From a virus: a DNA stretch of 64,000 nucleotides. The notes beneath the pieces are model-generated. The model had not been told where the DNA came from and ran no database searches. It worked only from the letters and a program-made list of their open reading frames with translations. The first letter of the stretch is position 1. Each line of letters starts with the position of its first letter. This document shows, piece by piece, positions 1 through 64,000 of the stretch. The DNA lies in UHGV virus genome UHGV-0175639; one strand, given 5' to 3'. The translations under genes were made by a program, and so were the position numbers.

Positions 1-94
1 CCTGGATGTGCTCCAGCATATGGCCGAGGTGGATTGAGCCGTTAGCGTACGGCAGCGCGCACGTCACCAGAATTTTCTTCGCGACTTGGGTCAT
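1..94 (-). CDS. metG: methionyl-tRNA synthetase, N-terminal fragment running off the window start
   Basis: Reverse complement of 1-94 reads [31 protein letters not shown], the MetG N-terminus with its HIGH-type motif; divergent from mrp as in Enterobacteriaceae. Confidence 0.85.
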
Positions 95-251
95 AGTAGG
101 CATTACTTCTTTGTAGTGAAAAGGGGCTTGATAGTAACAAAATGGCCTTATGTCTGCCATGTGATAACAGCATTTCTCATAAATGATTAAATGTCGTAGC
201 TGGAGTACACTACAAGGCGACAATTGCGCAAATTAAAATAAAGGAGACGGG

Positions 252-1352
252 ATGAGCGAGTCCAAATCGCCGGATGCCCTGAGAGCAATGGTAGCCGGTA
301 CGCTGGCTAATTTTCAGCACCCAACCCTGAAACACAACCTGACTACGCTTAAAGCGTTACACCATGTTGCGTTGATGGATGACACACTGCATGTCGAACT
401 AATCATGCCTTTCGTGTGGAATAAGCCTTTTGAAGACCTGAAAGAGCAATGTAGTGGTGATCTGCTCCGTATCACTGGCGCAAAGGCTATTGACTGGAAG
501 CTGTCGTACAACATTGCCACGCTTAAGCGTGTCAAAAACCAACCAGGCATTAATGGCGTTAAGAACATTATCGCCGTCAGCTCAGGCAAGGGCGGCGTGG
601 GTAAATCCTCCACGGCGGTAAACCTGGCACTGGCGTTGGCTGCTGAAGGTGCGAAAGTTGGTATTTTGGATGCCGATATCTATGGTCCATCAATTCCAAC
701 CATGCTGGGCGCGGAAAACCAACGTCCAACCTCACCTGACGGTACTCACATGGCACCTATCATGTCTCATGGCCTGGCAACCAACTCTATTGGTTATCTG
801 GTCACCGACGACAATGCAATGGTGTGGCGTGGACCGATGGCCAGCAAGGCGCTGATGCAGATGTTGCAGGAAACTCTATGGCCTGATCTGGACTATCTTG
901 TTCTCGATATGCCGCCGGGCACTGGTGATATTCAGTTGACGCTGGCGCAGAACATTCCTGTAACTGGTGCTGTTGTGGTAACTACGCCGCAAGACATCGC
1001 GCTGATCGATGCGAAGAAAGGCATTGTGATGTTCGAAAAAGTCGAAGTGCCGGTACTGGGTATCGTCGAAAACATGAGTGTGCATATTTGCAGTAACTGC
1101 GGTCATCACGAGCCAATTTTCGGCACCGGTGGCGCAGAGAAACTGGCCGAGAAATACAACACGCAGTTGTTAGGCCAAATGCCACTTCATATCTCACTTC
1201 GTGAAGATCTGGATAACGGAACACCAACCGTTATTAGTCGTCCAGATAGCGAATTTACGGCTATTTATCGTGACCTCGCAGATCGCGTTGCTGCCCAAAT
1301 GTATTGGCAAGGTGAAGTAATACCTGGCGAAATCGCATTCCGCGCAGTGTGA
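252..1352 (+). CDS. apbC: Fe-S cluster carrier ATPase Mrp/ApbC
   Basis: 366 aa; Walker A GKGGVGKSS, ParA/MinD fold, CxxC near C-terminus; matches enterobacterial Mrp from memory. Confidence 0.95.
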   Translation: MSESKSPDALRAMVAGTLANFQHPTLKHNLTTLKALHHVALMDDTLHVELIMPFVWNKPFEDLKEQCSGDLLRITGAKAIDWKLSYNIATLKRVKNQPGINGVKNIIAVSSGKGGVGKSSTAVNLALALAAEGAKVGILDADIYGPSIPTMLGAENQRPTSPDGTHMAPIMSHGLATNSIGYLVTDDNAMVWRGPMASKALMQMLQETLWPDLDYLVLDMPPGTGDIQLTLAQNIPVTGAVVVTTPQDIALIDAKKGIVMFEKVEVPVLGIVENMSVHICSNCGHHEPIFGTGGAEKLAEKYNTQLLGQMPLHISLREDLDNGTPTVISRPDSEFTAIYRDLADRVAAQMYWQGEVIPGEIAFRAV

Positions 1353-1360
1353 TAAAAAGG

Positions 1361-1379
1361 CGGTGCATTGCACCGCCTA
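1361..1379. terminator. hairpin GGCGGTGCATTGCACCGCC between convergent mrp and the UmuD-like gene
   Basis: Perfect inverted repeat directly after the mrp stop codon; could terminate in both directions. Confidence 0.5.
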
Positions 1380-1389
1380 ATCAGTTCTC

Positions 1390-1779
1390 CTACATCACGG
1401 GACAATCATCAAACTCGCCACTTCTTGCGTCGTTGATAATGTGAGTGATCACACCAAACACGGCATTGCTGCCCGTGCATCCATCGTCATCCTTTGGCAA
1501 TGCTTCCTTCTTACCGGTTCTTAAATCCTCCAGATGCTGACGTGGATACTTCCGGTATCTTTTTACGCGATATTCCCCATCCAGAGCGCATACAAGCAGA
1601 GAACCATCAACCGGGGTAAGTGAGGAATCGACCACCAGCAATGCACCCTGTAATATTCCCTCACGATGATGACTATCAGCTGCCCTCATGAAGTAGGTCG
1701 CTGAAGGATGTCTAATTATCTGCTGATCAAGAGAAATACGGCTCTCAGCATAATCCGCCGCAGGAGAAGGGAAGCCCAT
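1390..1779 (-). CDS. UmuD-prime-like S24 peptidase-fold protein (HumD-like; lacks the UmuD N-terminal arm)
   Basis: Starts MGFPSPAADY, matching UmuD just after its self-cleavage site; Ser and Lys of the catalytic dyad context present. Confidence 0.75.
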   Translation of the reverse strand: MGFPSPAADYAESRISLDQQIIRHPSATYFMRAADSHHREGILQGALLVVDSSLTPVDGSLLVCALDGEYRVKRYRKYPRQHLEDLRTGKKEALPKDDDGCTGSNAVFGVITHIINDARSGEFDDCPVM

Positions 1780-1795
1780 AATACTCGCCTCTTAA

Positions 1796-1815
1796 TACTG
1801 TATACACATACAGTG
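1796..1815. promoter_or_regulatory. LexA (SOS) box TACTGTATACACATACAGTG
   Basis: CTG-N10-CAG with AT-rich core, 17 bp upstream of the UmuD-like start. Confidence 0.7.
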
Positions 1816-2441
1816 TATATTGAAGCTATATATTTTTGAACTCTATCTCTTAAAAAAGATGTTAATAAGATGCTAACTATTGAAAGGCATAAATATATAC
1901 AATTCAAACAAACGTTATTTTTAACAAATTTTTTCTTCCCATTGACTTTTTCGAACGCCTTGTCCGGTCTAAAGTGCGCAGAAGTCACTTTTTCCTTCCT
2001 GAGTTATCCACAGGCTTATGCACTTGCATGAAAAATCTATTCACACTATCTTAATTCGCAAGACACTGATGTTGCAGTATTGAGGGTATGTTGGGTTAAA
2101 AATAGACATTAAAAAGCCCAGTTGACTAGGCTGGGCTTTTTAAAAGGAAACAGAGTTTGCGGCTCTGTTCCTGAGCCATAAGTATCTGGCGACTGAATTA
2201 AGATTAACCGAATGTACTGGATTCATCAAGAAACGTTGAGTGGTCATACTAGGTAATAATGACCATTTACTAAACATCGTTGTTCTCAAAGAAGATTTAA
2301 GTCCAGGTTTTTGGTGACTCTAAAACCTTACCTTAACTCGAAATCGTGCCGTAAGTATCTGGCGACTACAGATATTGCAACTGCAAAGGCAAGCCCAAAG
2401 GTATTTGCAGCTAGGCGCGATAAAACTAAGTGAGGCCTGTT

Positions 2442-2525
2442 ATGGTTAACTTACTGTTCAAAATCGTGCCGCCGATGTTCGCGATTATCAAAGCGATCAT
2501 TGAGTACGTAAACCAGCGTCCATAA
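2442..2525 (+). CDS. 27-aa hydrophobic mini-protein MVNLLFKIVPPMFAIIKAIIEYVNQRP (candidate type I toxin-like peptide)
   Basis: ATG preceded by GTGAGG 7 nt upstream; followed by hairpin terminator; short ORF so coding status is uncertain. Confidence 0.3.
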   Translation: MVNLLFKIVPPMFAIIKAIIEYVNQRP

Positions 2526-2539
2526 CGCTAGTTGCTACA

Positions 2540-2562
2540 GGCCCCATCAAGAGCATGGGGCC
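2540..2562. terminator. hairpin GGCCCCAT...ATGGGGCC followed by T-rich tract
   Basis: Inverted repeat between the mini-ORF and the convergent 208-aa gene. Confidence 0.5.
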
Positions 2563-2580
2563 TCTTTATCGTACTATTGC

Positions 2581-3207
2581 TTATTTTTTACGGACTGAGT
2601 TGTTCACTGCTCTGGCAATTTTCTCCCGCAATTGCTGCGCTCCGTGGTACTGAACCGCAATATCCCGCAACTCGTTCACCAGTTCTCTAATCTGGTGATC
2701 TTTAAGCTCATTATTTGGGTGATGGGTAACAACTCTGGTTAATTCACCCTTGTCTTTTGCTCTTACGTATGCAGCTCTTGTGCATTCGACCCATGTATTA
2801 CCGCCTACATTAACTTCGTAGATTAGGCTGGACTTATCTGTCAATTCGGAACAAATACGGGCCGTGGTCTGGCAACTAGAGCATTCGCAGTTATCGCGGA
2901 AACCGTGATCTACCGGTCGAGAAAGAGGTTTAACTTTTTCATCCAACTTCATCACAGCATCGTGATAAGCGTTCCAGCCGTCATCTTTACCAAGTTGATA
3001 AATCTCTGAAGGCTCCATGTAGTCTATATCGCAACCTTCTTCATCCGATCTATCTGGTCGCTTCCCTGGTAATCGCTCATAAAAACGATTTCTGTCTCGA
3101 CGTTCGGCTCTCAGTGCTAACGCAAGAAGTTGCTCAAGCGAGGTATTTGCACCAGCAATAATTTCATTGAGAATATCTTCTGTGAGATCTTTCGCTACCG
3201 TGCTCAT
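2581..3207 (-). CDS. hypothetical protein, 208 aa, with CxC...CxxC cysteine cluster
   Basis: Long ORF, first of the continuous minus-strand gene array. Confidence 0.5.
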   Translation of the reverse strand: MSTVAKDLTEDILNEIIAGANTSLEQLLALALRAERRDRNRFYERLPGKRPDRSDEEGCDIDYMEPSEIYQLGKDDGWNAYHDAVMKLDEKVKPLSRPVDHGFRDNCECSSCQTTARICSELTDKSSLIYEVNVGGNTWVECTRAAYVRAKDKGELTRVVTHHPNNELKDHQIRELVNELRDIAVQYHGAQQLREKIARAVNNSVRKK

Positions 3208-3587
3208 TTATCTCTCTCAGTATGTTGCGATGGCGTAAATTTGACGACATCAAATATTTTGGATGGCATCAACTTTATCCGCGAGCTTAGTTCGGCTCTT
3301 CTCTGTAATGCGGTTAATAATGTTTTCGTTCTGACGCCTTCGTGTATCCTCATCCCTGGCACAAGAACTACATCGCAGGGGAGATGCTCAGGTGACAAAT
3401 CATTTTGGGCATCGCTAATCAGTCGTGTAATCTCTCTTTCAAGCCGACCGCCTAGCTCTGTTTTAGTGCAATGTTCTGACCAATCGCCAGCCTCAAGCAG
3501 CGCGAGAATGCTTAAAATATCGTCCAATAGATCAGTGGTATTATCGACTTCCTTCTGAAACTCACCGGCTACTGATTTATGCATCAT
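3204..3587 (-). CDS. hypothetical protein, 127 aa
   Basis: ORF overlapping neighbours by 4 nt, typical translational coupling. Confidence 0.45.
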   Translation of the reverse strand: MMHKSVAGEFQKEVDNTTDLLDDILSILALLEAGDWSEHCTKTELGGRLEREITRLISDAQNDLSPEHLPCDVVLVPGMRIHEGVRTKTLLTALQRRAELSSRIKLMPSKIFDVVKFTPSQHTERDK

Positions 3588-3997
3588 TCGTCATCCTCAT
3601 CCGAGTCATCCTCATCACAGGATGAGAGTAGTGGGTTAGTCATTCGCCCTACTTGAGTGGCGTAGCCACGCCGACAGAGATTGCGCAGCACACTGTATAT
3701 TTCGAACATCTCGGTTCGTTCATCGCCAACATCAAGCTCAGATGCTATAGCGTGGCATTCAGTCGCGAGAGCCGATATTTTCTGAAATAACTCTGCATTA
3801 TTCACTGTTCGACTCCTGCGGCGTTCTGGTAGTGGCATCCAGTGTGTGACATTGCTAATCAGACCATATTCATTAGTTTGAGGATGGTTGCCGTTATCGT
3901 CTCCGTATTTAAGACTCTCCATAAAGCCATAATGCCTATCACCATTAACGCTCACAAAGCCGTAATAAGCAGGTATAACTGAATCGCCACGGATAAT

Positions 3998-4810
3998 CTA
4001 GACACTTCCGAGCCGTTGATAATACTGGTTTTCATATTCTGTCGGTGACATCTGTTCGCTAGAACCATGCCGACGCTTACTGTTATAAAACATTTCGATG
4101 TAATCAAAAATATCACTGCGGGCTTCTTCCCGCGTTCCGTAGATCTTTTTCTTTATCCGTTCACGTTTCAACAACTGGAAAAAACTTTCTGCAACCGCAT
4201 TATCATGGCAGTTACCGCGACGGCTCATGCTACCCTCCAGGCCGTGTGATTTCAGGAACGACTGCCACTCATGGCTTGTGTACTGACTGCCCTGATCCGA
4301 ATGAACCAGCACCTGTTTTTCGGGATTACGCCGCCATACAGCCATCAGCAGTGCGTTCAGGACAATGTCCTTTGTCATCCGGGATTGCATGGACCAGCCG
4401 ATAATTTTGCGTGAGAACAGATCAACAACAACGGCAAGATACAGCCAGCCTTCGTGGGTCCTGATGTAGGTTATGTCCGTTACCCAACGCTCATCAGGAG
4501 CATCCGGATTGAACTGTCGCTGGAGCCTGTTGGGTGACACGATACTGGCCTCGCCTTTACGTGCCCGCGGGCTTCGGTATCCGACCTGAGCCTTTATTCC
4601 GACACGTTTCATCAGTCTCCAGACTCTGTTTACTCCGCACTGTTGCCCGCTGTCACGCAAATCCAGATGGATTTTGCGATAACCATAGACGCATCCCGAT
4701 TCCAGCCAGAACTGTTTAATCTGTCCTGTCAGTCTCAGGTCTGCCTGATGGCGTTGTGAATGCGGCTGCTGAAGCCAGGCGTAAAAACCACTGGGATGAA
4801 CATCCAGCAC
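3998..4810 (-). CDS. IS3-family transposase OrfB (DDE integrase core)
   Basis: 270 aa; WVTDITYIRT...VHSDQGSQYTS...CHDNAVAESFF signature of IS3 OrfB. Confidence 0.85.
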   Translation of the reverse strand: MLDVHPSGFYAWLQQPHSQRHQADLRLTGQIKQFWLESGCVYGYRKIHLDLRDSGQQCGVNRVWRLMKRVGIKAQVGYRSPRARKGEASIVSPNRLQRQFNPDAPDERWVTDITYIRTHEGWLYLAVVVDLFSRKIIGWSMQSRMTKDIVLNALLMAVWRRNPEKQVLVHSDQGSQYTSHEWQSFLKSHGLEGSMSRRGNCHDNAVAESFFQLLKRERIKKKIYGTREEARSDIFDYIEMFYNSKRRHGSSEQMSPTEYENQYYQRLGSV

Positions 4811-4866
4811 CCGACAGAGCAGGCGAACAGGCCAGCAACAGGAGTTGTCACGGATAAAGGCGTACC

Positions 4867-5151
4867 TCAGTCGGACAGCTTTGCGAAGTACGCCGCGGCT
4901 TTTTTTAATATGTCCCGTTCGTCGGTAACCCGTTTCAGCTCTTTCTGGAGACGGCGGATCTCGGCCTGAGCATCTGACTGTTCTTTATTAGTGGAAGAAT
5001 CCGGACCGTACTTCTTTATCCAGGCATAAAGGCTGTGGGTGGTGATATCGAGACGTGTTGCAACGCTGGCAACAGAATAACCGCGATCAACAACCTGTTT
5101 GACTGCTTCAGTTTTAAACTCTTCGGGATAACGCTTACCGCTCATGGGCAC
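4867..5151 (-). CDS. IS3-family transposase OrfA (HTH, leucine-zipper region)
   Basis: 94 aa; EEFKTEAVKQV...HSLYAWIKKY pattern typical of IS3 OrfA. Confidence 0.85.
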   Translation of the reverse strand: MPMSGKRYPEEFKTEAVKQVVDRGYSVASVATRLDITTHSLYAWIKKYGPDSSTNKEQSDAQAEIRRLQKELKRVTDERDILKKAAAYFAKLSD

Positions 5152-5468
5152 CTCTCTTTAAGCCATCTTAAATGACACTGAGGTGTCTGTTAAACCCGTG
5201 GCGATTCAAACGCCGATCTCACACATAACCAGTAAAGGAAAACTAGTTCTCCAATTTAGCTCGCCAATTACAGGCATTCGCTCACTACAGCTTATCCAAC
5301 CATCCTTAGATGCGGCTGTATTGGCATAGGCCTTACGGTGCTTCTGTAGCTCTGCTGCAATCGCTCTCACGACTTCAACTGGTGCCCTTGCAGCAAACTC
5401 AATGTTGGTGATCAGCTCATTAAGATATTTCTCGCTTGGGTAGCATTTCTTATTGTTAACGGTGGTCA

Positions 5469-11140: not shown

Positions 11141-11437
11141 GTGTTTTCCTTAATGCTTAAACAAGTTGTTTTCTTATTGGCTTTATTGTGATGTGGCATA
11201 AAAGGGGAGCAAGCTAAACGTAAAGGTGCAAACTCTCTATTTCGGTCAACGAAACACAAGGGCCAAATGGCCCTTGTCATTAACACTTTGCTTTACGAAC
11301 TAACGGATAAGCGAAGTAGATCGCCAAACCAATGAGGACGCCATCAGAAATGACAGACATCATCTTTCCCGTAAAATCCACCAACACCGCCATCACCAGA
11401 AGAGCAATGACGATCACAAGCCGGAATCTCTCAAGCA

Positions 11438-11863: not shown

Positions 11864-11956
11864 GTGTTTTCCTTTTATTATTTGTCAAAACAAGTTGTTT
11901 TCTAATTACATAAATTGCTTACGCAAAGATGGTCAATGCATATGCACTAACAGCCG

Positions 11957-17181: not shown

Positions 17182-17826
17182 CTAATGAACGGTTACTCGG
17201 CCACAGAAGCGGTTTTCTATCTTTTCTACCGCGTTATCGAGCATTCTCATTACTGATCTGGCTCTTGCTTCAACTGTGCGATACCGGTTGGAAACGACGA
17301 AGGTTTGCAGATCTCCCCTTTGCGGATGCAGGTGAATTTTTGTCAGTTCCCCGCACATCAACGCATCAATACGAGCGACATACAGACGGTCTAATGATGC
17401 TCGTTGTGACCGCAAGTAATCTCGCTCTGAGAGAGCGACCCCCGGGCGTAGGCCAGCAATGGCGTTAAAATTTGAAATAGCAGTTTTGTGGCAAAACTTT
17501 TCGATATCGAGGGCTAACTCAATACATCGATCTTCATTGGTATGGCCGACCAAATCCAACGTGTAGGCCATAACATCAGCAGGTGTGCGATCGATAACAA
17601 AGCCTTCAACACCACGCGTAAGTAGCTCTATATGCTTTGCTATTTCCATTTGAATCTGAAGCCGCTCATATAGAGGCATAGACTCACCTACTCGAACACC
17701 GAGTCGGCTCATCAAACTTCCGACCCCAGCATCCACGTAAGGGATTCCGTAATGTTTGTCGATATATTTTGCCAGGGTTGTTTTCCCACTGCCCTGAGCA
17801 CCAGTGATCCCAATCCGGTAATCCAT
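17182..17826 (-). CDS. P-loop nucleotide kinase (putative dNMP kinase)
   Basis: GITGAQGSGKTT Walker A near the N-terminus; sits among nucleotide-metabolism genes. Confidence 0.55.
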   Translation of the reverse strand: MDYRIGITGAQGSGKTTLAKYIDKHYGIPYVDAGVGSLMSRLGVRVGESMPLYERLQIQMEIAKHIELLTRGVEGFVIDRTPADVMAYTLDLVGHTNEDRCIELALDIEKFCHKTAISNFNAIAGLRPGVALSERDYLRSQRASLDRLYVARIDALMCGELTKIHLHPQRGDLQTFVVSNRYRTVEARARSVMRMLDNAVEKIENRFCGRVTVH

Positions 17827-18302
17827 TACGACCTTCTGTATACGATCTGCGAAAAGCCAGGCTCTTCCTCGCTGGCTCGTTGGGTAAAAACTGTTTCAAC
17901 AGGCACAAAGCCTAAGTTACGCATCATGCTTGTCGGGAAGAATGCATCGGCGTTTGGTACATCAACGCCGATGTGAGAGAGCCAAATCTCTTCAACATGC
18001 GGCATGAATAGCGAGTAAATTTGTTCCCCGCCAATCACCCACACAGGCTCTGGTAATCGTAGCACATCATCCACACCAGCAGGGTAGAATCCATTTGGTA
18101 CAAAGCCATGCGAGCGCGTCAAAACGAGGTTATGACGCTCTGGAAGAGGGCGTTTGAGACTTTCCATCGTTTTACGCCCCATAACGACAGTGGCGTTTTT
18201 GGTGAGTCTCTTAAATAGCTTCAGATCGGTAGAACAACGCCAGGGCAGTTCGTTCGCTATGCCGATCTCATAGTTACGGCCAACAGCAGCTATCATCTTC
18301 AT
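17826..18302 (-). CDS. folA: dihydrofolate reductase
   Basis: IAAVGRNYEIG...LPW...VVMGRKT...GGEQIY pattern matches FolA. Confidence 0.85.
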   Translation of the reverse strand: MKMIAAVGRNYEIGIANELPWRCSTDLKLFKRLTKNATVVMGRKTMESLKRPLPERHNLVLTRSHGFVPNGFYPAGVDDVLRLPEPVWVIGGEQIYSLFMPHVEEIWLSHIGVDVPNADAFFPTSMMRNLGFVPVETVFTQRASEEEPGFSQIVYRRS

Positions 18303-22078: not shown

Positions 22079-22184
22079 GTGTTTTTCCTTTTTCTTTTTT
22101 GGTGCGTTTAAACAAGTTGTTATCTTATGTGTTTAAACAAGGCTTACAAATCAAAGAGAAGGTGGGGATATCCCCCACCATATG

Positions 22185-30697: not shown

Positions 30698-30798
30698 TAT
30701 GCTACCAGCGGTAATTGATAGTCTGTCAACGGTTCGCCGTATGCTGCCAACTGTTTTTGGTATGCTGCCAGCGGCAAATCAAGTATGCTGTCAGCGGT
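30698..30798. repeat. iteron array upstream of repA (four copies, consensus TATGCTNNCAGCGGT)
   Basis: Copies at 30698, 30740 (degenerate), 30761, 30784. Confidence 0.8.
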
Positions 30799-30817
30799 TG
30801 AATGACAAAGGTGTCCA

Positions 30818-31913
30818 CATGTCCACAAAAAATAAAAAAGGTAAAAATAACAAAGAAGTAGAAGATAATCTCGACAACTTTGAAGAAGGTTCCCTTGAAT
30901 TGTACACAGGGGAACTTGTCCCTAATAGCAACAATACAGTCCAACCAATTGCGTTGATGCGGCTGGGGTTGTTCGTGCCCACGCTCAAGGGGACAAAATA
31001 CAGCAAGCGTAATAAGCCAAATGAGATCGATGCTTCAAAGGAGCTTGTTCAGCTCGAAGTAGCCCGTTCTGAAGGTTATTCCGATATCAAGATAACCGGT
31101 CCTCGTCTCGACATGGATCATGATTTCAAAACGTGGGTGGGCGTTGTGCGTTCGCTGGCAGAATACGGCGAACCTAACGGTCGTGTCGAGTTAAGCATCA
31201 CGAAATTTGCGAAGTTTTGTGGCTATCCATCGTCACAGATCCGCAAAACACTCCGCGACCGGCTTACAAACAGTCTTTTGAAGATCATGCGTACAACTCT
31301 GTCTTTTCAGAGAACGTATGAAGAAAAGAATGTCGACGGCTCTAACAAGATCTCGCTTCTGATGGTGCACCTCATCAATAGCGTGGACTACAACGAGCAG
31401 AAAGATACGGTGGTGTTCTATGCAGAACCGAAGCTGGCCGAACTATATCGCTTTGACCATAAGGTTCTTTTGCAGTTAAAGGTTATCAATAAGCTACCAC
31501 GCAAAGAAACAGCACAGGCTCTGTACACCTTCATCGAAAGTCTTCCAACCAAGCCTGCGCCGGTATCGCTTGCTCGATTACGTGCGCGACTCAATTTGAG
31601 TAGCAGGAATGTCAGCTCGCAGAATCAGACTATACGTAACGGCTTAAAAGCTCTCCAAGATTTGGGCTATCTCGAATACAGCGAGATTAAGCGAGGGCGG
31701 TCGATCTATATCCAGATTCACAGCCGCAATCCAAAACTCAAAGTCGCACCGCCAAAACCTGAAGACATCGAACCCAAAAAACCAGATGAGAAAGCTGGGG
31801 AAATTGATGCCAAACAGAACATTATCAACAAGATAACCGAACTTTCGCAGAATTTGACGCCTGAAAATATCAAGATGATTGAGATCCTTTCCAATAGTCT
31901 CAAACTGCTTTGA
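30818..31913 (+). CDS. repA: RepA-like replication initiator (iteron-binding)
   Basis: 365 aa from MSTKNKKGK; flanked on both sides by iterons; start of the longer tracked ORF rejected because it overlaps the iterons. Confidence 0.7.
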
Positions 31914-34012: not shown

Positions 34013-34103
34013 GTTTTCTTATCCTTTTAAACAAATTGTTTTCTTAATAAGATAATTGCGATAAAAAAGGCGTCCAACTGGACGCCTGAACTTTTAAGGG
34101 GAG

Positions 34104-46980: not shown

Positions 46981-47367
46981 ATGTCTGACAACAAGATTGA
47001 ATTTATAGAAAGTCGCTATGCTGCTTTTATCGCAGGGCTGATTGAATCCTCACCTATGAGTCAGGCCCAAATAGCCAGACTTATTGGTTATAAAAATGCC
47101 AACAACCTTTCTTTAATTAAAAGTGGCAAAATTCCTTTGCCTATCGATAAGGTTCGTCCGTTGGCGCTGGCGCTGGGTATTGAGCCAAGTCGTCTTATGA
47201 TGATGGTGCTGGAAGAACGCCAACCTGAACTCGCAGCATTTTTATACAAAGAAGGCACCGCTCCTCTTAACGAGGACGAAAAACAGGTTCTTGCTGCATA
47301 TAACGAGCGATTCGGTAAAGAGAAAGGCGCATCACAAAAGGTTGTTGAGGCCATAAAGTCTCTATGA
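46981..47367 (+). CDS. HTH (Cro/C1-type) transcriptional regulator
   Basis: SQAQIARLIGYKNANNLSLIKSG helix-turn-helix; convergent with the recombinase. Confidence 0.6.
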   Translation: MSDNKIEFIESRYAAFIAGLIESSPMSQAQIARLIGYKNANNLSLIKSGKIPLPIDKVRPLALALGIEPSRLMMMVLEERQPELAAFLYKEGTAPLNEDEKQVLAAYNERFGKEKGASQKVVEAIKSL

Positions 47368-48465
47368 AAAATTTACACGAATAAGCTCTGTTGATAGACG
47401 ATCTCCCTTGAATTTGTGGTCAATTTCGTCTAAATCCGGTTGCTCTACGATTGATGCGATGTACGTCGAGAAACTTTCTAAGGCGTCTCGCATCTCGTCC
47501 ATATAATCGTGCCGGTCGTAGACTCGATCTATCCCCTCAAGACTGTGGTTCATGATTTTGCGTGATACCTCCTGGCTTATGCCTAATGCTGGGAAGTAAC
47601 TACGCGCAGTACGGCGCAAGTCTCGGGGTGTAAATGGCTCAAGCTCCATCAGTTCTGGTCGTTCCAGGATACGACGTAATGCCTGGGCTATTGCCACTTT
47701 AGACATAGGAAGGTCTTTCCCGATTTTTTTATTCGAAGGCACGAGCCACTGGCTGCCTTTACCGTATTCGAACAACTCTTCAATACATGTGCGCATTAAT
47801 GTGCTTAAAGGCAGCGAATGCTCACGGGCAGATTTGTTCCTCTTGCCTTGATTCCAAACCCCACGCTTAAGATTGAACTCACTTTTTTTAGCCCGCAGTA
47901 CTTCGTCAGGTCGTCTTGCGGATACAAGACACAGCCTGGCCGCCCATTTTGTACCAGCGCACACATTGAAGTAGTCCCATATATTCCAGAACACCCATAC
48001 CTCTGCGTCGGTCAGCTTCCGCTCGCGAGGTGTGGGCTTTGCGCCACCGGCAACTTTGTTTAGTGACATATCGTTTAACGGTGACACGTCTATCATCCCC
48101 TGGAAGGCGCACCAGCTAAGGAACTGCTTCATCAGAGAGAAAACGCGGCGGCCCATAACAATTTTGCCATCCAGTATTAGTGGGTTGACCAGTTGGTTCA
48201 CCATGAACCTATTAATGTCACTTACTTTTACATCGGCAATGTGCGGCAAAACATGTATCAAAATACAATGAACAGCGATCTCTGGCCGACGTCTTGTTAT
48301 CAGCAGAGATAAGCGAGTGAATAACATGAATGCGTCCGAGAATCTCATGTCATTGCTGACCTGCGAGATCATAACGGCCTGCATTTGAGATGCTCTTTCG
48401 AGATACTCAATCGCCTCTTTTGAGGTGTTCTCCGCAGCGCGTGCTCTGTCAAAGCTATTTTTCAT
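47362..48465 (-). CDS. tyrosine site-specific recombinase
   Basis: Conserved Arg and LRRT box and C-terminal VYDRHDY tyrosine region. Confidence 0.8.
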   Translation of the reverse strand: MKNSFDRARAAENTSKEAIEYLERASQMQAVMISQVSNDMRFSDAFMLFTRLSLLITRRRPEIAVHCILIHVLPHIADVKVSDINRFMVNQLVNPLILDGKIVMGRRVFSLMKQFLSWCAFQGMIDVSPLNDMSLNKVAGGAKPTPRERKLTDAEVWVFWNIWDYFNVCAGTKWAARLCLVSARRPDEVLRAKKSEFNLKRGVWNQGKRNKSAREHSLPLSTLMRTCIEELFEYGKGSQWLVPSNKKIGKDLPMSKVAIAQALRRILERPELMELEPFTPRDLRRTARSYFPALGISQEVSRKIMNHSLEGIDRVYDRHDYMDEMRDALESFSTYIASIVEQPDLDEIDHKFKGDRLSTELIRVNFS

Positions 48466-48675: not shown

Positions 48676-48921
48676 TCAGAGGGTGCTGACGTATGCAGCC
48701 AGTTCTGTGTATCCGCCAATCGGCTGGCCATCGATCAGCACCTGGGGGATAGTCTCTACCGGTTTACCAACAATTTCACTTAGTTTTTCCTTGTTGATAC
48801 CGGCAGTGGTGATGTCGATGTACTCATAATCACCGTAGCCATGTCCCTTTAGTTGCTTCGCCAGCTCGACCGCACGTTTGCAGTATGAGCAGTTATCTCG
48901 TCCGTAGATAGTGATCGTCAT
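48676..48921 (-). CDS. glutaredoxin-like protein (NrdH/Grx)
   Basis: 81 aa from MTITIYGRDNCSYCKRA; CxxC thioredoxin-fold motif; GAGG RBS. Confidence 0.7.
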   Translation of the reverse strand: MTITIYGRDNCSYCKRAVELAKQLKGHGYGDYEYIDITTAGINKEKLSEIVGKPVETIPQVLIDGQPIGGYTELAAYVSTL

Positions 48922-49095
48922 TGTTACCTCATAGAATTGATATGCAACTTTACTTACAAAGAAGATAGGTATGTGCATACTTATCTTTGCAGTCTGCATT
49001 ATAAAGCTATTAAAGCCTCGATCAATCTATTAATTAAGGCATTGTTTGGTTAACATTAGCCTAATAATTTATAGTTAGTAGAGTGAAATACATAC

Positions 49096-50358
49096 ATGCC
49101 TTTTTTAATTTTCATTATTATACTACTGCTCACCGTTATTTTTTGGGATTGGGTTGTTTTAAATGGTCAAACTGTTGGAACATTGGCTACAGCATTTGCT
49201 TTTATAGCAACAGCATGGAATGCCTACGAAGCGAGAAAAAGTGCAAAAGCAGCTTTTTCAGCCCTTCAATTAACAACTGAATCATTGTTCGAAATGCGAA
49301 AGAGTGCATTTAAACAATGGTTTGATTCCTTATTAAATCAACATGATGCGTTATGTCTTCTTGCAAAACAAATTATCGATAAACACAAAATTAATTTAAA
49401 CAGCGATGAGTTACATAGACTCTATTACCCATTGGTAAAACAGCATGAGGTAATACAGTATGTGAAGCATATTATTAATATATTTGAGTATGTGGATAGT
49501 TCATTTTATATTGATGGGGAATGTCTCAAGGAAAAAAGAGCGTATGTATCACAATTAATTTTTAAAATCCCACCTCAGATGAAGTTGATCATTGCTATCT
49601 TTGGATTAAAAATCGATTATTGTGAACATATTAATTCGGAAAAACTGTGTTGTTTATTGAATAAATATGATTTTTTCAATGATGAAATATTTTTTGATGA
49701 TGCTTATTCAAATATGCCTTATCTGGATACATTCATAAACCTTAGATTCAATAAAATATTCAAATCTCGAATGATAAATTATTTTGATAATATCATTAAA
49801 AGTTATTATGTTCCATCGGACGTTAAAAGGGACTGGATGTTTCGACGCCCACAGCTCGTACCGTCGGTTCTTATGAATTATAAAACTCCTTGTTCTCCTA
49901 TAATTAATGATTACTTTGAGAAGTTGCCTTTACATGTAAGAAACTACTTTGAGGAACAACTTAAAACCGCGAATGATAGAGTTACTCATTTTGACGTTTA
50001 CATCCCACGCCTTATTGGTTGTTCAATCGTGCAACATTACGAAGATGTGCCTTCCGAAAAAAACAGGTTAAATGACAGGAATGATGTAATAGCTATGGCT
50101 GAAGATTACATCGAGAAAAGAAAATCTAATCAACTAGATTACATACTTGAAGATATATACTTCAAGAGTGACGAAGATATAATCCCAGGCCACCATTTGA
50201 TTGTGGCATTTGATGACTATGAATTTAAATTATCACTCATTAAGATAAATGAGAATAAAGATAGCGATAATCTTTTAAATCGAATTTATACTGAATCCAG
50301 TAGCATGGTTAAAGAATATAAGCGCGAAATATTAAAACTGGGCGACTATGTAAAGTAA
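49096..50358 (+). CDS. membrane-anchored protein, 420 aa, unknown function
   Basis: Two N-terminal TM helices then a long soluble domain; conspicuously AT-rich by eye; own terminator. Confidence 0.6.
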   Translation: MPFLIFIIILLLTVIFWDWVVLNGQTVGTLATAFAFIATAWNAYEARKSAKAAFSALQLTTESLFEMRKSAFKQWFDSLLNQHDALCLLAKQIIDKHKINLNSDELHRLYYPLVKQHEVIQYVKHIINIFEYVDSSFYIDGECLKEKRAYVSQLIFKIPPQMKLIIAIFGLKIDYCEHINSEKLCCLLNKYDFFNDEIFFDDAYSNMPYLDTFINLRFNKIFKSRMINYFDNIIKSYYVPSDVKRDWMFRRPQLVPSVLMNYKTPCSPIINDYFEKLPLHVRNYFEEQLKTANDRVTHFDVYIPRLIGCSIVQHYEDVPSEKNRLNDRNDVIAMAEDYIEKRKSNQLDYILEDIYFKSDEDIIPGHHLIVAFDDYEFKLSLIKINENKDSDNLLNRIYTESSSMVKEYKREILKLGDYVK

Positions 50359-50376
50359 ATTGCACTGTTCAACAAA

Positions 50377-50397
50377 AAAGGGGCCGAAGCCCCTTTG
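50377..50397. terminator. hairpin AAAGGGGC-CGAA-GCCCCTTTG with flanking A and T runs
   Basis: Textbook intrinsic terminator, usable in both directions. Confidence 0.65.
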
Positions 50398-50470
50398 AAT
50401 TTTGCGCTGAAAAAAGTGTTGCTAAGATGTTAGCAAGCTATGGTTAAGAACGTCTGCCGTAATTATCTAT

Positions 50471-50548
50471 CACAGCGTTGAGCGGTCTGGTTTATGTTAG
50501 CGGAGTCTTAATCGAGTTGATTAAAAGGCCAAACCGCTCAACGCTGTG
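50471..50548. other. long inverted repeat (about 20-bp stem CACAGCGTTGAGCGGTCTGG, 38-nt loop) abutting the tRNA-Ser 3' end
   Basis: Arms at 50471-50490 and 50529-50548; related stem at 51341-51464 on the other side of the tRNA cluster. Confidence 0.45.
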
Positions 50549-50549
50549 T

Positions 50550-50636
50550 CTGGCGGAGAGTAATGGAATCGAACCATCATCGTTTGCACAATGGAACGGT
50601 TTTCAAGACCGCTTGAGCACCATGCTCCCTACTCTC
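50550..50636 (-). tRNA. tRNA-Ser (anticodon UGA), long variable arm, CCA encoded
   Basis: Manual fold: acceptor GGAGAGU/ACUCUCC, anticodon loop CUUGAAA, T-loop GGTTCGATTCC. Confidence 0.65.
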
Positions 50637-50827
50637 CAGCTATTGTGATGGTCGGTACTGAACTCCGACACAGGGTTGTAGCAAGCCCCGCAAAGCGCGC
50701 ACTACTGTAGTTGCGGCACATCAGCCTGTGCATTCATCACAACGGTAAGAGCACTGGTCTGACTCTATCGATTTACGGCCTTGTGGGTCAGTATCGCCGA
50801 TTCGCCCAATGCTCTTACCTGTTGTGT

Positions 50828-55835: not shown

Positions 55836-56068
55836 GTTGGCTTCCCTTTATTTATATTTATCGCAGGTATTAGTTAATCAAAACACGAGCAGTGCCACAA
55901 TAATTAAATGGCGTACTATTTCTTATGGTTATTAGTTTCCTAGTAACTTTACCGACCATAAACTAAATCAACAAAGCTGACATATTAACTAAATTTAAGT
56001 ACCCTTTTTCGCACACTTGACGCTTGCCGCGTCTAAACTGTTCATCCTATATCAACAGAACAAAAAAT

Positions 56069-57214
56069 ATGAAATACATAAAATCTTCATCGTTGCTGGC
56101 ATTAACTTTGCTTTTTAGCTCTGGATTCGTTAACGCAGACAATAAACAAACGCTGATAGAAGCCGCTACCGCAGGGGATACCGCAGCACAAAGTGAGTTA
56201 GGGACAAATTATTTTGATGGTATCAATGGTTTTGATAAGGATGTAGTTGAGGCCAAGAAGTGGATTGATCTCGCTGCAGAAAAGGGAGACAAAGTAGCAT
56301 ATTATGCACTTGGGGTTATGTACACATTTGGCGAGGGTGTAGATAAAGACCTAAATAAAGCTGTTGAGTACTACAAACTTGCGGGGGATGCTCGTGAAGG
56401 TAGAGCCTACAACAATCTTGGTGCTATTTATCAAAAGGGGTTGCTTGGTAAAGTAGATCATGCACTCGCCATTAAATACTTCAAACTAGCCTCTGATGCC
56501 GGGTATGTTAAAGCAACTTCAGTTCTTGGGGCGTATTACCAATATGGTAAAGGCGTTAAAAAGAATTATAAAAAGGCTTTTACTTATTACAAAAAGGCGG
56601 CAGACCAAGGCAGTTCAGAAGCTATGATAGGATTAGGAATACTATACGATGATGGGTTAGGCGTTAAACGCAATGATGCAGAAGCAGTTAAGTGGTATAA
56701 AAAGGCAGCGGAACTTGGAAACGCCGACGCCATAACCAATCTTGGCATTATGTATGAGAATGGGGAAGGTGTAAAAAAGGACTATAAAAAAGCAGCCGAC
56801 CTTTATCAGACTGCTTGCGATAAAGGAGAAAAAAGAGGCTGCGATTACATTGCAGAACTGAAAGAAAGCGGCAAATATCGAGCGCCGGCTTCCAAAGCCA
56901 AAACAAAATCCGCCACCCAGCGACTTATTGCTAAATCCATTGATAAGGGCGTTAACGCTACATTTACCTGGCAGGGTGATGATGCTACCTTCACCGCTAA
57001 TGATGGCAAAGTTGACTGCACATTCCTGAAGGATTTTTCAGAGAAAGGAGGCAATCTGGCTACCTCGTTTGTTTGCACAGATAACGTTCAAATCATCCTG
57101 AAGCAATTCAGAGATACCAAAAATGCCTACCTCGCGGTAATGACTGACAACTTCAATACTGAAGTTAAATCATTTTCGGTCAATGTGTATGTGACTAATA
57201 CTGGTTCAAACTAA
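56069..57214 (+). CDS. secreted Sel1-like repeat protein
   Basis: Signal peptide MKYIKSSSLLALTLLFSSGFVNA; at least six Sel1-type repeats followed by a C-terminal domain of about 120 aa; AT-rich by eye. Confidence 0.7.
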   Translation: MKYIKSSSLLALTLLFSSGFVNADNKQTLIEAATAGDTAAQSELGTNYFDGINGFDKDVVEAKKWIDLAAEKGDKVAYYALGVMYTFGEGVDKDLNKAVEYYKLAGDAREGRAYNNLGAIYQKGLLGKVDHALAIKYFKLASDAGYVKATSVLGAYYQYGKGVKKNYKKAFTYYKKAADQGSSEAMIGLGILYDDGLGVKRNDAEAVKWYKKAAELGNADAITNLGIMYENGEGVKKDYKKAADLYQTACDKGEKRGCDYIAELKESGKYRAPASKAKTKSATQRLIAKSIDKGVNATFTWQGDDATFTANDGKVDCTFLKDFSEKGGNLATSFVCTDNVQIILKQFRDTKNAYLAVMTDNFNTEVKSFSVNVYVTNTGSN

Positions 57215-59809: not shown

Positions 59810-59852
59810 GTGCTTTCCTTTGTTTTTTAAACAAATTGTTTTCTAGTATTAG

Positions 59853-60790: not shown

Positions 60791-61987
60791 TTAAACATCT
60801 TTTAGAAAGCCTGGAAACCAATGTTTCATGATATACCTAAAATGTGCTCTAGTTGGTTCAAAAACCTGTCTAGATACCAGCGCTCCATCAGGATGATTCT
60901 GAACAGACTGTTCTTTTTCCATATCGTAAAAATTATGAGTTATCTCTGGGGGGAAGAAAATATTTCTGTCCAGTGGCACTGTCGCAAAAGGATTGTAGTA
61001 AATATGAAGGCCGTCAAAGTGCGTCTCTTCATGAGCAGTGGAATGACAAACTACAATATCCGCACCAGTGACTTCGTTATTTAAAAAATGCCGATATGTA
61101 GTGATGAAATGATCAGGTCCTATCCTTTGTGTGTGCTTTCCCTCGTTTTTCATCCCTTCATTGGCGATGAAATCATTCACATCAATGGCTCGATATCGTG
61201 TTGACCTTACATATCTACCGATACCGCTTTGAACCACGGCTTTTCCAAAAGTGCCGGTGGTGGAGAAAATAACCGCACTTATTTCTTTATATGAGTCGTT
61301 AGTAAATATACCTAATGGAATTTCAACGTCTTCATTCTTTTTGATTGAGGTAACTTTAGTTTGGCTGCCAGTCACCAAATTTCTGGTGGTAGGTTCCTCA
61401 ATGCCAAACAACACTCGATTGATGATTGTGTTATTTTGAGACAATGATAAATCGGAGTCAAAGGGTGCAAGCGCCAGAACAAACGGCTTATTAACTACAT
61501 GAGACATCGTAGAGTACGGGAATTTTTTGCCATTAACTCCTGTAAAAAGATCATGTTTGTCTTTGATTTTTCCGATTAATTTTAGCGTTGATTGATGTTT
61601 GAATTTTGATTCGCTAAAAAGAACACCTGCAGGTGGATTATGTGGCCGATCTGATATCACAGCTTCGACGTTAAACTGGTAGCCTGACGGTGTAGTAACA
61701 CAGAAATCGGGACTGTCTTTTGTGTAGTCGACAGAATAATCGAGACGAATAAACATTTCGTTCAGATACAATTCCCATAAGGCGGAATTGAAGGTTGTCT
61801 GAAACTCTTTAACGAATTTAGTCTGCTCACCGCTACGCTCCAGTAACCCACGCCCCCACGACTGTATCACTTCTCTTACTGGAGCATATGTATTATCTTG
61901 ATAAATCTGTTTAAAAGATTCGTGCAGCTTGTTTTTTGCTATTTTGGTTGAGAACAAATCCATTATTAGCCTCACTAACCAGTTCAA
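60791..61987 (-). CDS. hypothetical protein, 398 aa (island gene 2)
   Basis: No recognised domain; AT-rich by eye; start may be the internal MDLFSTK. Confidence 0.5.
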   Translation of the reverse strand: MNWLVRLIMDLFSTKIAKNKLHESFKQIYQDNTYAPVREVIQSWGRGLLERSGEQTKFVKEFQTTFNSALWELYLNEMFIRLDYSVDYTKDSPDFCVTTPSGYQFNVEAVISDRPHNPPAGVLFSESKFKHQSTLKLIGKIKDKHDLFTGVNGKKFPYSTMSHVVNKPFVLALAPFDSDLSLSQNNTIINRVLFGIEEPTTRNLVTGSQTKVTSIKKNEDVEIPLGIFTNDSYKEISAVIFSTTGTFGKAVVQSGIGRYVRSTRYRAIDVNDFIANEGMKNEGKHTQRIGPDHFITTYRHFLNNEVTGADIVVCHSTAHEETHFDGLHIYYNPFATVPLDRNIFFPPEITHNFYDMEKEQSVQNHPDGALVSRQVFEPTRAHFRYIMKHWFPGFLKDV

Positions 61988-62029
61988 TAAGAAAAGCGCC
62001 CAACATAATCATTTGAGGAAAGTCTGGAG

Positions 62030-62788
62030 CTACTTCAGCTTTTCTTTGACAAGAAGATAACCATCATCAGGTGTACTCATTTTGTAAACCTCGATGCTCG
62101 TGTCTAGCTGTGTCCGGGCATATTCTTCTACTTCAGGAGAAACGTTATGTCCAAGAATGATCTCTCTAATATATTTCTTATCAAATGCCTGAGCGCCTAT
62201 TTTTTTAGTAATAACCCTTTGTTCTTCCTCATATTTCCAGCATTCGTGCTTGTAGAAAAAGAGCTTATCAAAAAGTACCTTAAACTCATCTGTAACTTCA
62301 TCGAACACGGGAACAGAAGGTATATATTTCACATTATCAAAGCTGTGATACCCCTCAATAGAGGTAACAAAATCATCATCAAAGCCTATGCAGAAACCTT
62401 TATGCGACACTGAGTAATGTGACCACATCAAGATGTTATCTTCGTTTGGTGACAAGCACACCACACCAAAAGCCCCTAATGATTCTTTCCGCAAATCCAC
62501 AGCCAACGATTTTGCAGCTTCAGGAGCTACAGCATCCCAGTCTTCAAAGGAAAAATCCTTACATCCATTGTCTTCAAAGTGTTTCCGGTGCTCCACTTCT
62601 GTACCTCCCATCGTTATCGAAACTTTGAACTCTGATGGGTCGTTGAATGAAGAAGGTGCGCTAGCAGAGATAGTGCCGTCCTCTACAAACCGTTTGAGGT
62701 TACGTAACACTTTTTGCGAATCTTCACTTCCAATATATTTGTAGAGCATTAGGGAACCTATAGAAAGAGGTGCCAAGCAGCACCTCAA
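62030..62788 (-). CDS. DUF2971-like protein, 252 aa (island gene 1)
   Basis: LYKY...SSFNDPSEF...MWSHYS...GFCIGFD pattern as remembered for DUF2971; begins 6 nt after the ParG-like stop. Confidence 0.5.
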   Translation of the reverse strand: MRCCLAPLSIGSLMLYKYIGSEDSQKVLRNLKRFVEDGTISASAPSSFNDPSEFKVSITMGGTEVEHRKHFEDNGCKDFSFEDWDAVAPEAAKSLAVDLRKESLGAFGVVCLSPNEDNILMWSHYSVSHKGFCIGFDDDFVTSIEGYHSFDNVKYIPSVPVFDEVTDEFKVLFDKLFFYKHECWKYEEEQRVITKKIGAQAFDKKYIREIILGHNVSPEVEEYARTQLDTSIEVYKMSTPDDGYLLVKEKLK

Positions 62789-63821: not shown

Positions 63822-64000
63822 TGGAGAGTTCCCTTTGCGTATATAATTATCGTCTGAAACAACTTGTTTTCTTATATGTGATATAGCCTAAATGCCTACG
63901 GCTGCGGTGTAAAGGTTTAATGATAGGTACATAGGGGGGGCTTAATAACAAAAAACCCGCCGTAGCGGGTTTATTGATTCATAGATCGTTTAGTCAGAAT

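Follow-up and report, generated by a model that had tools for sequence, protein, structure and literature searches.

Introduction

An additional metG gene, encoding methionine--tRNA ligase (MetRS), has been described on a phage-plasmid of Shigella sonnei (pWPMR2-type), where it was linked to antimicrobial survival (Tam et al. 2024, medRxiv 10.1101/2024.10.27.24316207, as cited in PMC12452169 and bioRxiv 10.1101/2025.09.12.675607). According to the citing article this extra gene is variable in sequence and in copy number, and extra or variable phage-plasmid metG is reported to give rise to an antimicrobial-surviving subpopulation (Tam et al. 2024, via PMC12452169). Going by its description, the S. 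sonnei element is an SSU5-supergroup phage-plasmid of the Escherichia/Shigella type. The presence of metG on a phage-plasmid is hence already published for S. sonnei and is not a new finding. A related element, Cyrano (pLF82, OV696614), forms virions and is present at ~5.5 copies per cell; in lysogenic LF82 its gene CYRAN_99 is transcribed 9-fold over the prophage background, and CYRAN_100 (metG) is absent from the list of LF82 genes transcribed above background (PMC9928086). The type member of the supergroup, Salmonella phage SSU5, carries phage structural and lysis genes and lacks metG, apbC and humD, its corresponding accessory region being filled by other genes. Two further systems serve for comparison: the E. 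coli K-12 chromosome, in which metG and mrp (apbC) form a divergent pair (b2114-b2113) with yehF downstream of metG and yeh genes downstream of mrp, and phage P1, which carries humD together with an upstream LexA-regulated region.

Here we analysed a window of 64 kb, the whole stretch of DNA available from virus genome UHGV-0175639, which begins inside metG, continues through apbC and then enters genes of phage-plasmid type. A sequence-only reading had taken metG and mrp for chromosomal copies and the step behind mrp for a chromosome to phage-plasmid junction, and had considered an unusual integration or cointegration, captured host genes or a chimeric contig as causes.

Results

Across ≥80% of its length, segment 1-3500 of the window matches ~98 circular plasmids of E. 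coli. The 25 best plasmid matches show 98.8-100% identity and are 72-120 kb long, mostly 105-120 kb, and the phages Cyrano, CMS-2020a and PhiR41_1 reach 96.6-98.5%, compared to only 80-90% for chromosomal copies. Twelve plasmids each cover 91-94% of the first 25 kb. The full 64 kb is collinear with plasmid pR9-658-1, across the RepB gene of the latter: the order of the alignments is kept, with 94.5-99.7% identity over most of the window, and is broken by accessory insertions only. All close relatives of the window are circular plasmid records. The window shares with SSU5 the backbone genes for a DUF4942 methyltransferase (92% amino acid identity between the two proteins), ribonucleotide reductase (RNR), thymidylate synthase, DNA polymerase and a DEAD-box helicase, and this collinear backbone places it in the SSU5 supergroup. 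It further contains a plasmid replicon (30696-32434, + strand) made up of a RepB-family initiator gene (30699-31913) and flanking iterons TATGCTRCCAGCGGTAA of two families (D4 and D5); its collinear counterpart in pR9-658-1 is a RepB gene lying across the origin of that plasmid. Genes for tail fibre, tail assembly and Cor, found in pR9-658-1, lie outside the 64 kb, as do the structural and lysis genes known from SSU5. The whole window is thus very probably one continuous 64-kb section of a circular phage-plasmid of ~110 kb, which belongs to the Escherichia/Shigella clade of the SSU5 supergroup (Cyrano/pLF82-like, pWPMR2-like) and has captured metG and apbC genes of its own. It supplies many nucleotide, DNA and translation functions itself (four tRNAs, nrdAB, thyA, a DHFR gene, dnaE, a ligase and a glutaredoxin).

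Signs of an integration border were searched for across the window. A tyrosine recombinase (47362-48465, - strand; Pfam Phage_integrase, E=7e-10) is present ~46 kb from the edge, in agreement with the ~45 kb noted earlier; its position is conserved in pR9-658-1, internal to the plasmid backbone. The only direct repeats found were the iterons, a repeated operator-like motif and ribosome-site/start motifs; none of them resembles an att pair, none links the junction region to a distal site as proposed in the sequence-only reading, and no long direct repeat in the window pairs 1353-2600 with a distal position. In an Rfam search four tRNAs alone reached the gathering score, with sub-threshold hits only in 1-3300 (AgrB, E=0.09), and these tRNAs are the element's own. 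Together with the recombinase ~46 kb away, this is not the arrangement of an integrated prophage or genomic island border.

The left end of the window consists of the first 94 nt of metG (1-94, - strand; start codon 94-92), the remainder lying left of the window. These 94 nt are 100% identical to metG of pTW10722_119 and show two differences to E. coli K-12 metG. Plasmid and chromosomal metG genes share 93-96% identity over ~2 kb; the encoded MetRS differs from that of K-12 at 6-10 of 677 residues, and we found no MetRS residues specific to the phage-plasmid copies. The divergent intergenic region between metG and apbC comprises 157 bp (95-251), of which only 47 bp beside metG align with Escherichia chromosomes (89-94%), compared to ~137 bp with Citrobacter (77%). 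A simple scan of this region yielded no consensus sigma-70 promoter, and promoter hits in 1-2700 were no more numerous than in shuffled sequence. The adjacent apbC/mrp gene (252-1352, + strand) encodes an Fe-S cluster carrier P-loop NTPase of 366 aa (Pfam PF10609, E=2e-102) and corresponds to CYRAN_99, annotated as MinD in Cyrano. Its Walker A (GKGGVGKS) and CSNC motifs are intact. At the nucleotide level it is 82-84% identical to Escherichia chromosomal copies (95% at the amino acid level), whereas Escherichia species share 89-99% among themselves, which identifies it as an allele of the phage-plasmid lineage.

In comparison to the K-12 locus, the window shows the same divergent pair with the same gene lengths. 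However, apbC is only ~82% identical at the nucleotide level, the greater part of the intergenic region fails to align and the flanking yeh genes are missing, the place behind apbC being taken by humD after 37 nt. The alignment with K-12 ends at the stop codons of both metG and apbC. The metG and apbC genes of the window are cargo copies and not the chromosomal genes of the host; of the possibilities raised before, the capture of host genes is the one that holds. A metG gene encoded on an SSU5-like phage-plasmid, as here, is known from S. sonnei as well (Tam et al. 2024).

The 37-nt gap between the stop codons of the convergent genes apbC and humD contains a G+C-rich hairpin GGCGGTGCATTGCACCGCC (1358-1378), identified by a terminator scan and likely acting as a two-way terminator. 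This hairpin was absent downstream of apbC in 80 chromosomal loci. The humD gene (1390-1779, - strand; Pfam Peptidase_S24) encodes a UmuD'-like S24 peptidase of a P1-type SOS mutagenesis module and is labelled 'HumD family translesion DNA polymerase' by PGAP. It is 82-86% identical at the nucleotide level to humD of P1, P7, D6 and RCS47, with homology beginning at ~1391-1400, at or just within the stop codon. Homology to the P1 humD/'LexA regulated function' segment covers 1391-2031, beginning near the humD stop codon and taking in the LexA-regulated region upstream; unlike in P1, the module is here part of an SSU5-type backbone and stands back to back with apbC. Directly upstream of humD the sequence TACTGTATACACATACAGTG (1796-1815) reads as a LexA box of the form CTGT-N8-ACAG, which fits the LexA operator consensus known from the literature. 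Together with humD and the final 64 nt of apbC, the hairpin has moved into a lambdoid prophage. The single chromosomal match to the full junction that was inspected is a lambdoid prophage carrying a humD fragment only.

Of 5,426 complete E. coli genomes, 207 have the exact apbC-terminator-humD junction, in almost every case on a plasmid, and since it recurs in this way a misassembly is ruled out. In PLSDB the block occurs on 189 plasmids at ≥95% identity and on 205 at ≥80% coverage; sampled carriers stem from E. coli, E. albertii and E. marmotae, and six Shigella plasmids match. Cyrano, pTW10722_119 and pR9-658-1 show the same order metG-apbC-humD with 97.7-100% identity over 1-3500. In the annotated records of these three elements phage-plasmid genes flank metG-apbC on both sides, so that the presumed passage from chromosome to phage-plasmid behind mrp does not exist. 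The three differ from the window in several further accessory regions. Neighbours of the block differ among plasmids and include der, hot and a type I RM system. As the genes flanking the block have homologues in SSU5, which lacks MetRS, ApbC and HumD, and as the neighbours vary from plasmid to plasmid, we regard the block as cargo. A search for an 'empty site' by tblastn of a left-flank protein against phages returned remote jumbo-phage matches only. Some relatives carry DUF1380/DUF5983-type plasmid genes on the metG side of the block.

The IS3-family insertion sequence noted before lies at 3980-5208 (- strand). This element of 1229 bp has two overlapping transposase ORFs and interrupts a DUF551 gene. 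It is bordered by imperfect inverted repeats of 38 nt (3980-4017 and 5171-5208) and a 3-bp target duplication, AAC (3977-3979 and 5209-5211), and multi-copy elements annotated as 'IS3 family transposase', in E. coli HS among others, share 99.6-99.9% identity with it. None of the complete E. coli genomes carries it at this same site. With a target duplication of its own, the element represents a simple insertion, away from the apbC-humD junction. All features of the earlier description were therefore found at or near the positions given for them (the metG-mrp pair, phage-plasmid-type genes within ~40 bp, the IS3 element and the distant recombinase), and the adjacency of 'core' and phage-type genes is real and not due to chance.

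Both captured genes have been kept functional. Values of dN/dS are 0.007-0.046 for metG and 0.010-0.040 for apbC (both ~0.02), which indicates strong purifying selection on either gene. Their ancestries differ. Phage-plasmid metG nests within Escherichia with 100% bootstraps (dS 0.29-0.39), whereas apbC is sister to the whole genus Escherichia, with bootstraps of 98% for all sites and 52% for codon positions 1+2 (dS 1.2-1.7). Among GTDB species representatives we found no closer chromosomal donor of apbC, the best reaching 95% amino acid identity. The ratio of apbC to metG dS is 5.4 here, compared to 1.65-1.85 in the two chromosome pairs checked. Gene-specific rates as the mere cause of the identity gap between metG and apbC were rejected: the ratio is ~3 times what is normal for chromosomes, and the two genes differ in their position in the trees. 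Among plasmids, metG alleles form a mosaic (PHI-like test, 0/1000 permutations) and are not monophyletic, and apbC alleles give no mosaic signal (p=0.77). The evidence for gene conversion comprises 8 plasmid and 8 chromosomal alleles, and the test for long identical runs assumes uniform rates along the gene; within this frame the mosaic pattern of metG looks consistent with gene conversion against host chromosomes.

Discussion

We propose that a two-gene block of ~3.3 kb, reaching from stop codon to stop codon and including the divergent promoter region, is an old capture from an Escherichia-related chromosome that today resides in a variable accessory region, adjoining the P1-type LexA-controlled humD module. 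In this scenario apbC would retain the old divergence, whereas metG was probably overwritten repeatedly, in patches, by recombination with chromosomal metG of the hosts. A lysogen would thereby receive extra MetRS of the ordinary Escherichia type and extra Fe-S carrier, in a dose set by the plasmid copy number. An antimicrobial-surviving subpopulation, arising through extra or variable metG, could be a second function, judging from the phenotype that the citing literature gives for S. sonnei.

An opposing explanation is a true chromosome/phage-plasmid junction, with the element integrated or cointegrated at the metG-mrp locus of the host; homologous recombination at metG or an IS-mediated event are examples of how this could come about. 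The ~2 kb of metG at 93-96% identity makes RecA-mediated cointegration conceivable, and the window begins inside metG with the left neighbour beyond its end. However, apbC is the plasmid allele and reaches only 82-84% identity with any of the Escherichia chromosomes sampled; the 94-nt piece of metG likewise matches the plasmid allele at 100%, with two differences to K-12. The identical junction occurs on circular plasmids in the 207 complete genomes, and the lone inspected chromosomal match is the lambdoid prophage with its humD fragment. The window is collinear with pR9-658-1 across RepB, it contains no att-like repeats and the IS has its own 3-bp duplication off the junction. We therefore consider an integration or cointegration event here very improbable. 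The proposed chimeric contig, joining chromosomal and plasmid reads, has even less in its favour: two metG copies per cell that are 93-96% identical could in principle confuse short-read assemblers, but the arrangement is the same base for base in >200 complete assemblies made independently of each other, long-read and phage genome records among them, and with a plasmid-specific apbC allele there is no chromosomal sequence in the window to be joined. Its probability is close to nil.

A different question is whom the captured genes serve. MetRS and the Fe-S carrier might support the lytic cycle or plasmid replication, i.e. the phage and not the host, and antimicrobial survival would then be a side effect. 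The self-supplied tRNAs, RNR, DHFR, thymidylate synthase and DNA polymerase fit such cargo, and so does the maintenance of metG-apbC at ≥95% identity across 189 plasmids under strong purifying selection. On the other hand, SSU5 and other Salmonella members do without the metG-apbC block, and apbC is transcribed in the lysogen (PMC9928086). We regard this phage-serving role as rather unlikely.

Returning to the captured block, a tentative extension, which we hold to be possible at best, is that plasmid metG acts as a portable homology patch. RecA-mediated gene conversion with host copies might continually reshuffle metG alleles across Escherichia species, which would explain a young mosaic metG beside an ancient apbC, and the same homology may allow an occasional, reversible cointegration at chromosomal metG. 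If true, the element would be a vehicle for the interspecies exchange of core housekeeping alleles and may be a source of the 'highly variable metG' signal in epidemiological studies.

A small new point on the evolution of phage-plasmid cargo is that the two captured genes contrast in their ancestry. For annotation, 'core' genes beside phage genes are no evidence of an insertion border here, and a second metG/apbC is to be expected on SSU5-like phage-plasmids of Escherichia and Shigella. Such cargo is relevant as extra or variant MetRS has been tied to antibiotic tolerance. The accessory region holding the block is also where IS elements bring resistance genes such as blaCTX-M-15: at the site of the IS3-family element of the window, pTW10722_119 has ISEc47 and pR9-658-1 has ISEcp1-blaCTX-M-15.

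Left end of the window

Re-annotation of the window bore out the gene anatomy of the sequence-only reading (metG, mrp, phage-type genes, an IS3 element and a recombinase). The 5′ end of metG lies on the minus strand (1–94, start codon 94–92; 94 nt of the gene are inside the window) and is separated by a 157-bp intergenic region from the divergent apbC, or mrp (252–1352, 366 aa; Pfam PF10609, E = 2e-102), whose Walker A and CxxC motifs are unbroken. The S24-peptidase gene humD (1390–1779) is convergent to apbC: their stop codons are 37 nt apart, with a G+C-rich hairpin (1358–1378) in between, and P1 homology starts at ~1391–1400, at the humD stop codon or just within. The ~800 bp of non-coding DNA past humD carry two hairpin terminators and a repeated AAGTATCTGGCGACT motif (2037–2190 and the 2181–2195/2354–2368 region), as well as a sub-threshold Rfam match to AgrB (E = 0.09). 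AgrB is antisense RNA to the SOS-induced toxin dinQ; this stretch may be a candidate small SOS-linked RNA or toxin locus.

Plasmid identity

The sequence-only reading had placed a chromosome-to-phage-plasmid junction directly after mrp. We found ~98 complete E. coli records that cover ≥80% of window 1–3500; the best 25 of these are all circular plasmids (98.8–100% identity, mostly 105–120 kb), with pTW10722_119 on top at 100%. Chromosomal metG-mrp loci, searched in all 5,426 complete E. coli genomes, fall only in the 80–90% identity band. The phage records CMS-2020a, Cyrano (pLF82) and PhiR41_1 match the same stretch at 96.6–98.5%, Cyrano being an SSU5-like phage-plasmid (PMC9928086). Phage-plasmid genes stand on either side of metG-apbC in pTW10722_119, pR9-658-1 and Cyrano, and the entire 64-kb window is collinear with pR9-658-1, spanning its RepB gene, at 94.5–99.7% identity and with breaks at accessory regions only. 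The RepB-family initiator of the window (30699–31913) has iterons on both flanks. Of the 5,426 genomes, 207 have the complete apbC-terminator-humD junction (1250–1800). Counting all matches to this interval gives 700 plasmid and 113 chromosomal places; where the chromosomal ones were sampled, most were short and umuD-like. The metG-apbC block is found at ≥95% identity in 189 PLSDB plasmids; the hosts of those sampled are E. coli, E. albertii and E. marmotae, and six Shigella plasmids match as well.

Taken together, plasmid and phage identity, collinearity, RepB and the recurrent junction show that the window contains no chromosomal DNA, and the proposed junction is rejected. An unusual integration or cointegration is not needed, as the same arrangement exists on circular plasmids, nor is a chimeric contig, given the recurrence of the junction. 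A search of the window for att-like direct repeats yielded none. The tyrosine recombinase is indeed far from the edge (47362–48465) and is a conserved backbone gene.

metG-apbC as phage-plasmid cargo

The side option that host genes had been captured proved correct. The Salmonella phage SSU5, the type member, has homologues of both genes flanking the block (DUF4942 protein, 92% aa identity; small gene left of metG, 44%) but lacks MetRS, ApbC and HumD. Neighbours of the block differ from plasmid to plasmid; in pYLPM7a they are humD-hot plus a type I restriction system. Compared with E. coli K-12, the alignment stops at the stop codons of metG and apbC alike, and the post-apbC hairpin was seen after apbC in none of 80 chromosomal loci across the Enterobacteriaceae.

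In the 166-kb E. marmotae plasmid NZ_CP146383.1 (locus L086:6051–7523) apbC is followed by der, a core gene for a ribosome-biogenesis GTPase, where the window has humD; housekeeping genes of chromosomal origin seem to accumulate in this accessory region. In the E. coli SJC33 chromosome (NZ_CP080255.1), the humD-hot module of a lambdoid prophage keeps the last 64 nt of plasmid-type apbC and the hairpin with one mismatch (L093:12000–12135 versus window 1289–1420). This is a fossil of the transfer of the humD module from a phage-plasmid of this type to a lambdoid phage, with the breakpoint within apbC.

Evolution of metG and apbC

Purifying selection on both genes is strong (dN/dS 0.007–0.046 for metG and 0.010–0.040 for apbC), and their contrasting ancestry, together with a recombination signal in metG, is the modest new point of this analysis. 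Plasmid metG shares 92.7–94.2% identity with Escherichia chromosomal alleles (dS 0.29–0.39, the same range as between Escherichia species) and is placed inside Escherichia in 100% of bootstraps. In contrast, plasmid apbC is as distant from Escherichia as Citrobacter (82–84%, dS 1.2–1.7): it is a long-branch sister to all Escherichia in 98% of bootstraps with all sites and 52% with codon positions 1+2, and is nested inside the genus in 0–5.5%. No ApbC closer than 95% aa was found among GTDB species representatives. Gene-specific rates fail to explain this gap in depth, since the apbC/metG dS ratio is 5.4 on the plasmid versus 1.65–1.85 in chromosomes (two pairs checked).

Differences among eight plasmid metG alleles reach 6.3% and are patchily distributed, with apbC nearly unchanged in several plasmid pairs (pYLPM7a versus pR9: metG 5.0%, apbC 0.5%). 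By a four-gamete/PHI-like test the signal is significant in metG (0/1000 permutations); apbC gave p = 0.77, which is not significant. A chromosomal E. ruysiae allele is nearer to two of the plasmid metG alleles than the remaining plasmid alleles are, and identical runs of 237–257 nt join plasmid and chromosomal alleles. As the simplest reading of this small allele sample we infer that the block was captured once, long ago, from a stem-Escherichia lineage; metG would then have been gene-converted repeatedly by host copies, with apbC having diverged too far for recombination.

Function and expression

The feature itself is already known: hundreds of records annotate it, and there is published work on its medical relevance. 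In S. sonnei, a highly variable metG on a phage-plasmid is reported to give rise to an antimicrobial-surviving subpopulation (Tam et al. 2024, summarised in PMC12452169); the element, pWPMR2, has been assigned to the SSU5 supergroup and also found in E. coli (bioRxiv 10.1101/2025.09.12.675607). Cyrano has ~5.5 copies per cell, and CYRAN_99 is transcribed in lysogens 9-fold over prophage background (PMC9928086). From the annotated Cyrano record we identified CYRAN_99 as its apbC. ApbC bears seven private substitutions (residues 4, 41, 58, 59, 69, 303 and 350), in the N-terminal ~70 residues and close to the C-terminus. We found no residue separating plasmid MetRS from chromosomal Escherichia alleles, so if metG has an effect, dose or regulation is a likelier cause than a change in the enzyme.

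A possible insertion hotspot and other genes

The IS3-family element noted 2.6 kb inside is present (3980–5208, 1229 bp, 38-nt inverted repeats) but marks no border: it is an ordinary secondary insertion within the DUF551 gene with its own 3-bp duplication (AAC), found at this site in none of the complete E. coli genomes. Past a 127-aa ORF, the mobile insertion in the DUF551 stretch (3704–5208) varies between plasmids: the counterpart of the IS3-family element is ISEc47 in pTW10722_119 (L001:15868–18293) and ISEcp1-blaCTX-M-15 in pR9-658-1 (L083:15456–18240). The stretch looks like an insertion hotspot that is open to resistance genes too.

Variable regions missing from pR9-658-1 encode the defence protein PD-T7-5 (E = 2e-139) and a PDC-S31 candidate (E = 4e-38), both in 60791–62788, and a 396-aa Sel1-repeat protein (56024–57214; Pfam E = 1e-54). 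A low-GC (31%) variable insert adjoining the tRNA cluster (48911–50806) contains a 420-aa ORF (49096–50358) with no match in Pfam or PADLOC, which is perhaps a defence or accessory gene not yet recognised as such. The positional counterpart of the backbone dihydrofolate reductase (17826–18302) in pR9-658-1 is annotated by PGAP as dfrA51, a trimethoprim-resistant DHFR. The palindromic motif AAACAAnTTGTTTTCT is repeated upstream of many leftward operons (11144–11174, 11873–11903, 22095–22125, 34014–34044, 59814–59844 and 63842–63872), and the plasmid alignment shows a related palindrome, AAAACAAnTTGTTTT, twice on the 3′ side of the metG stop in pTW10722_119; the recurring motif is probably a phage-plasmid promoter or operator element.
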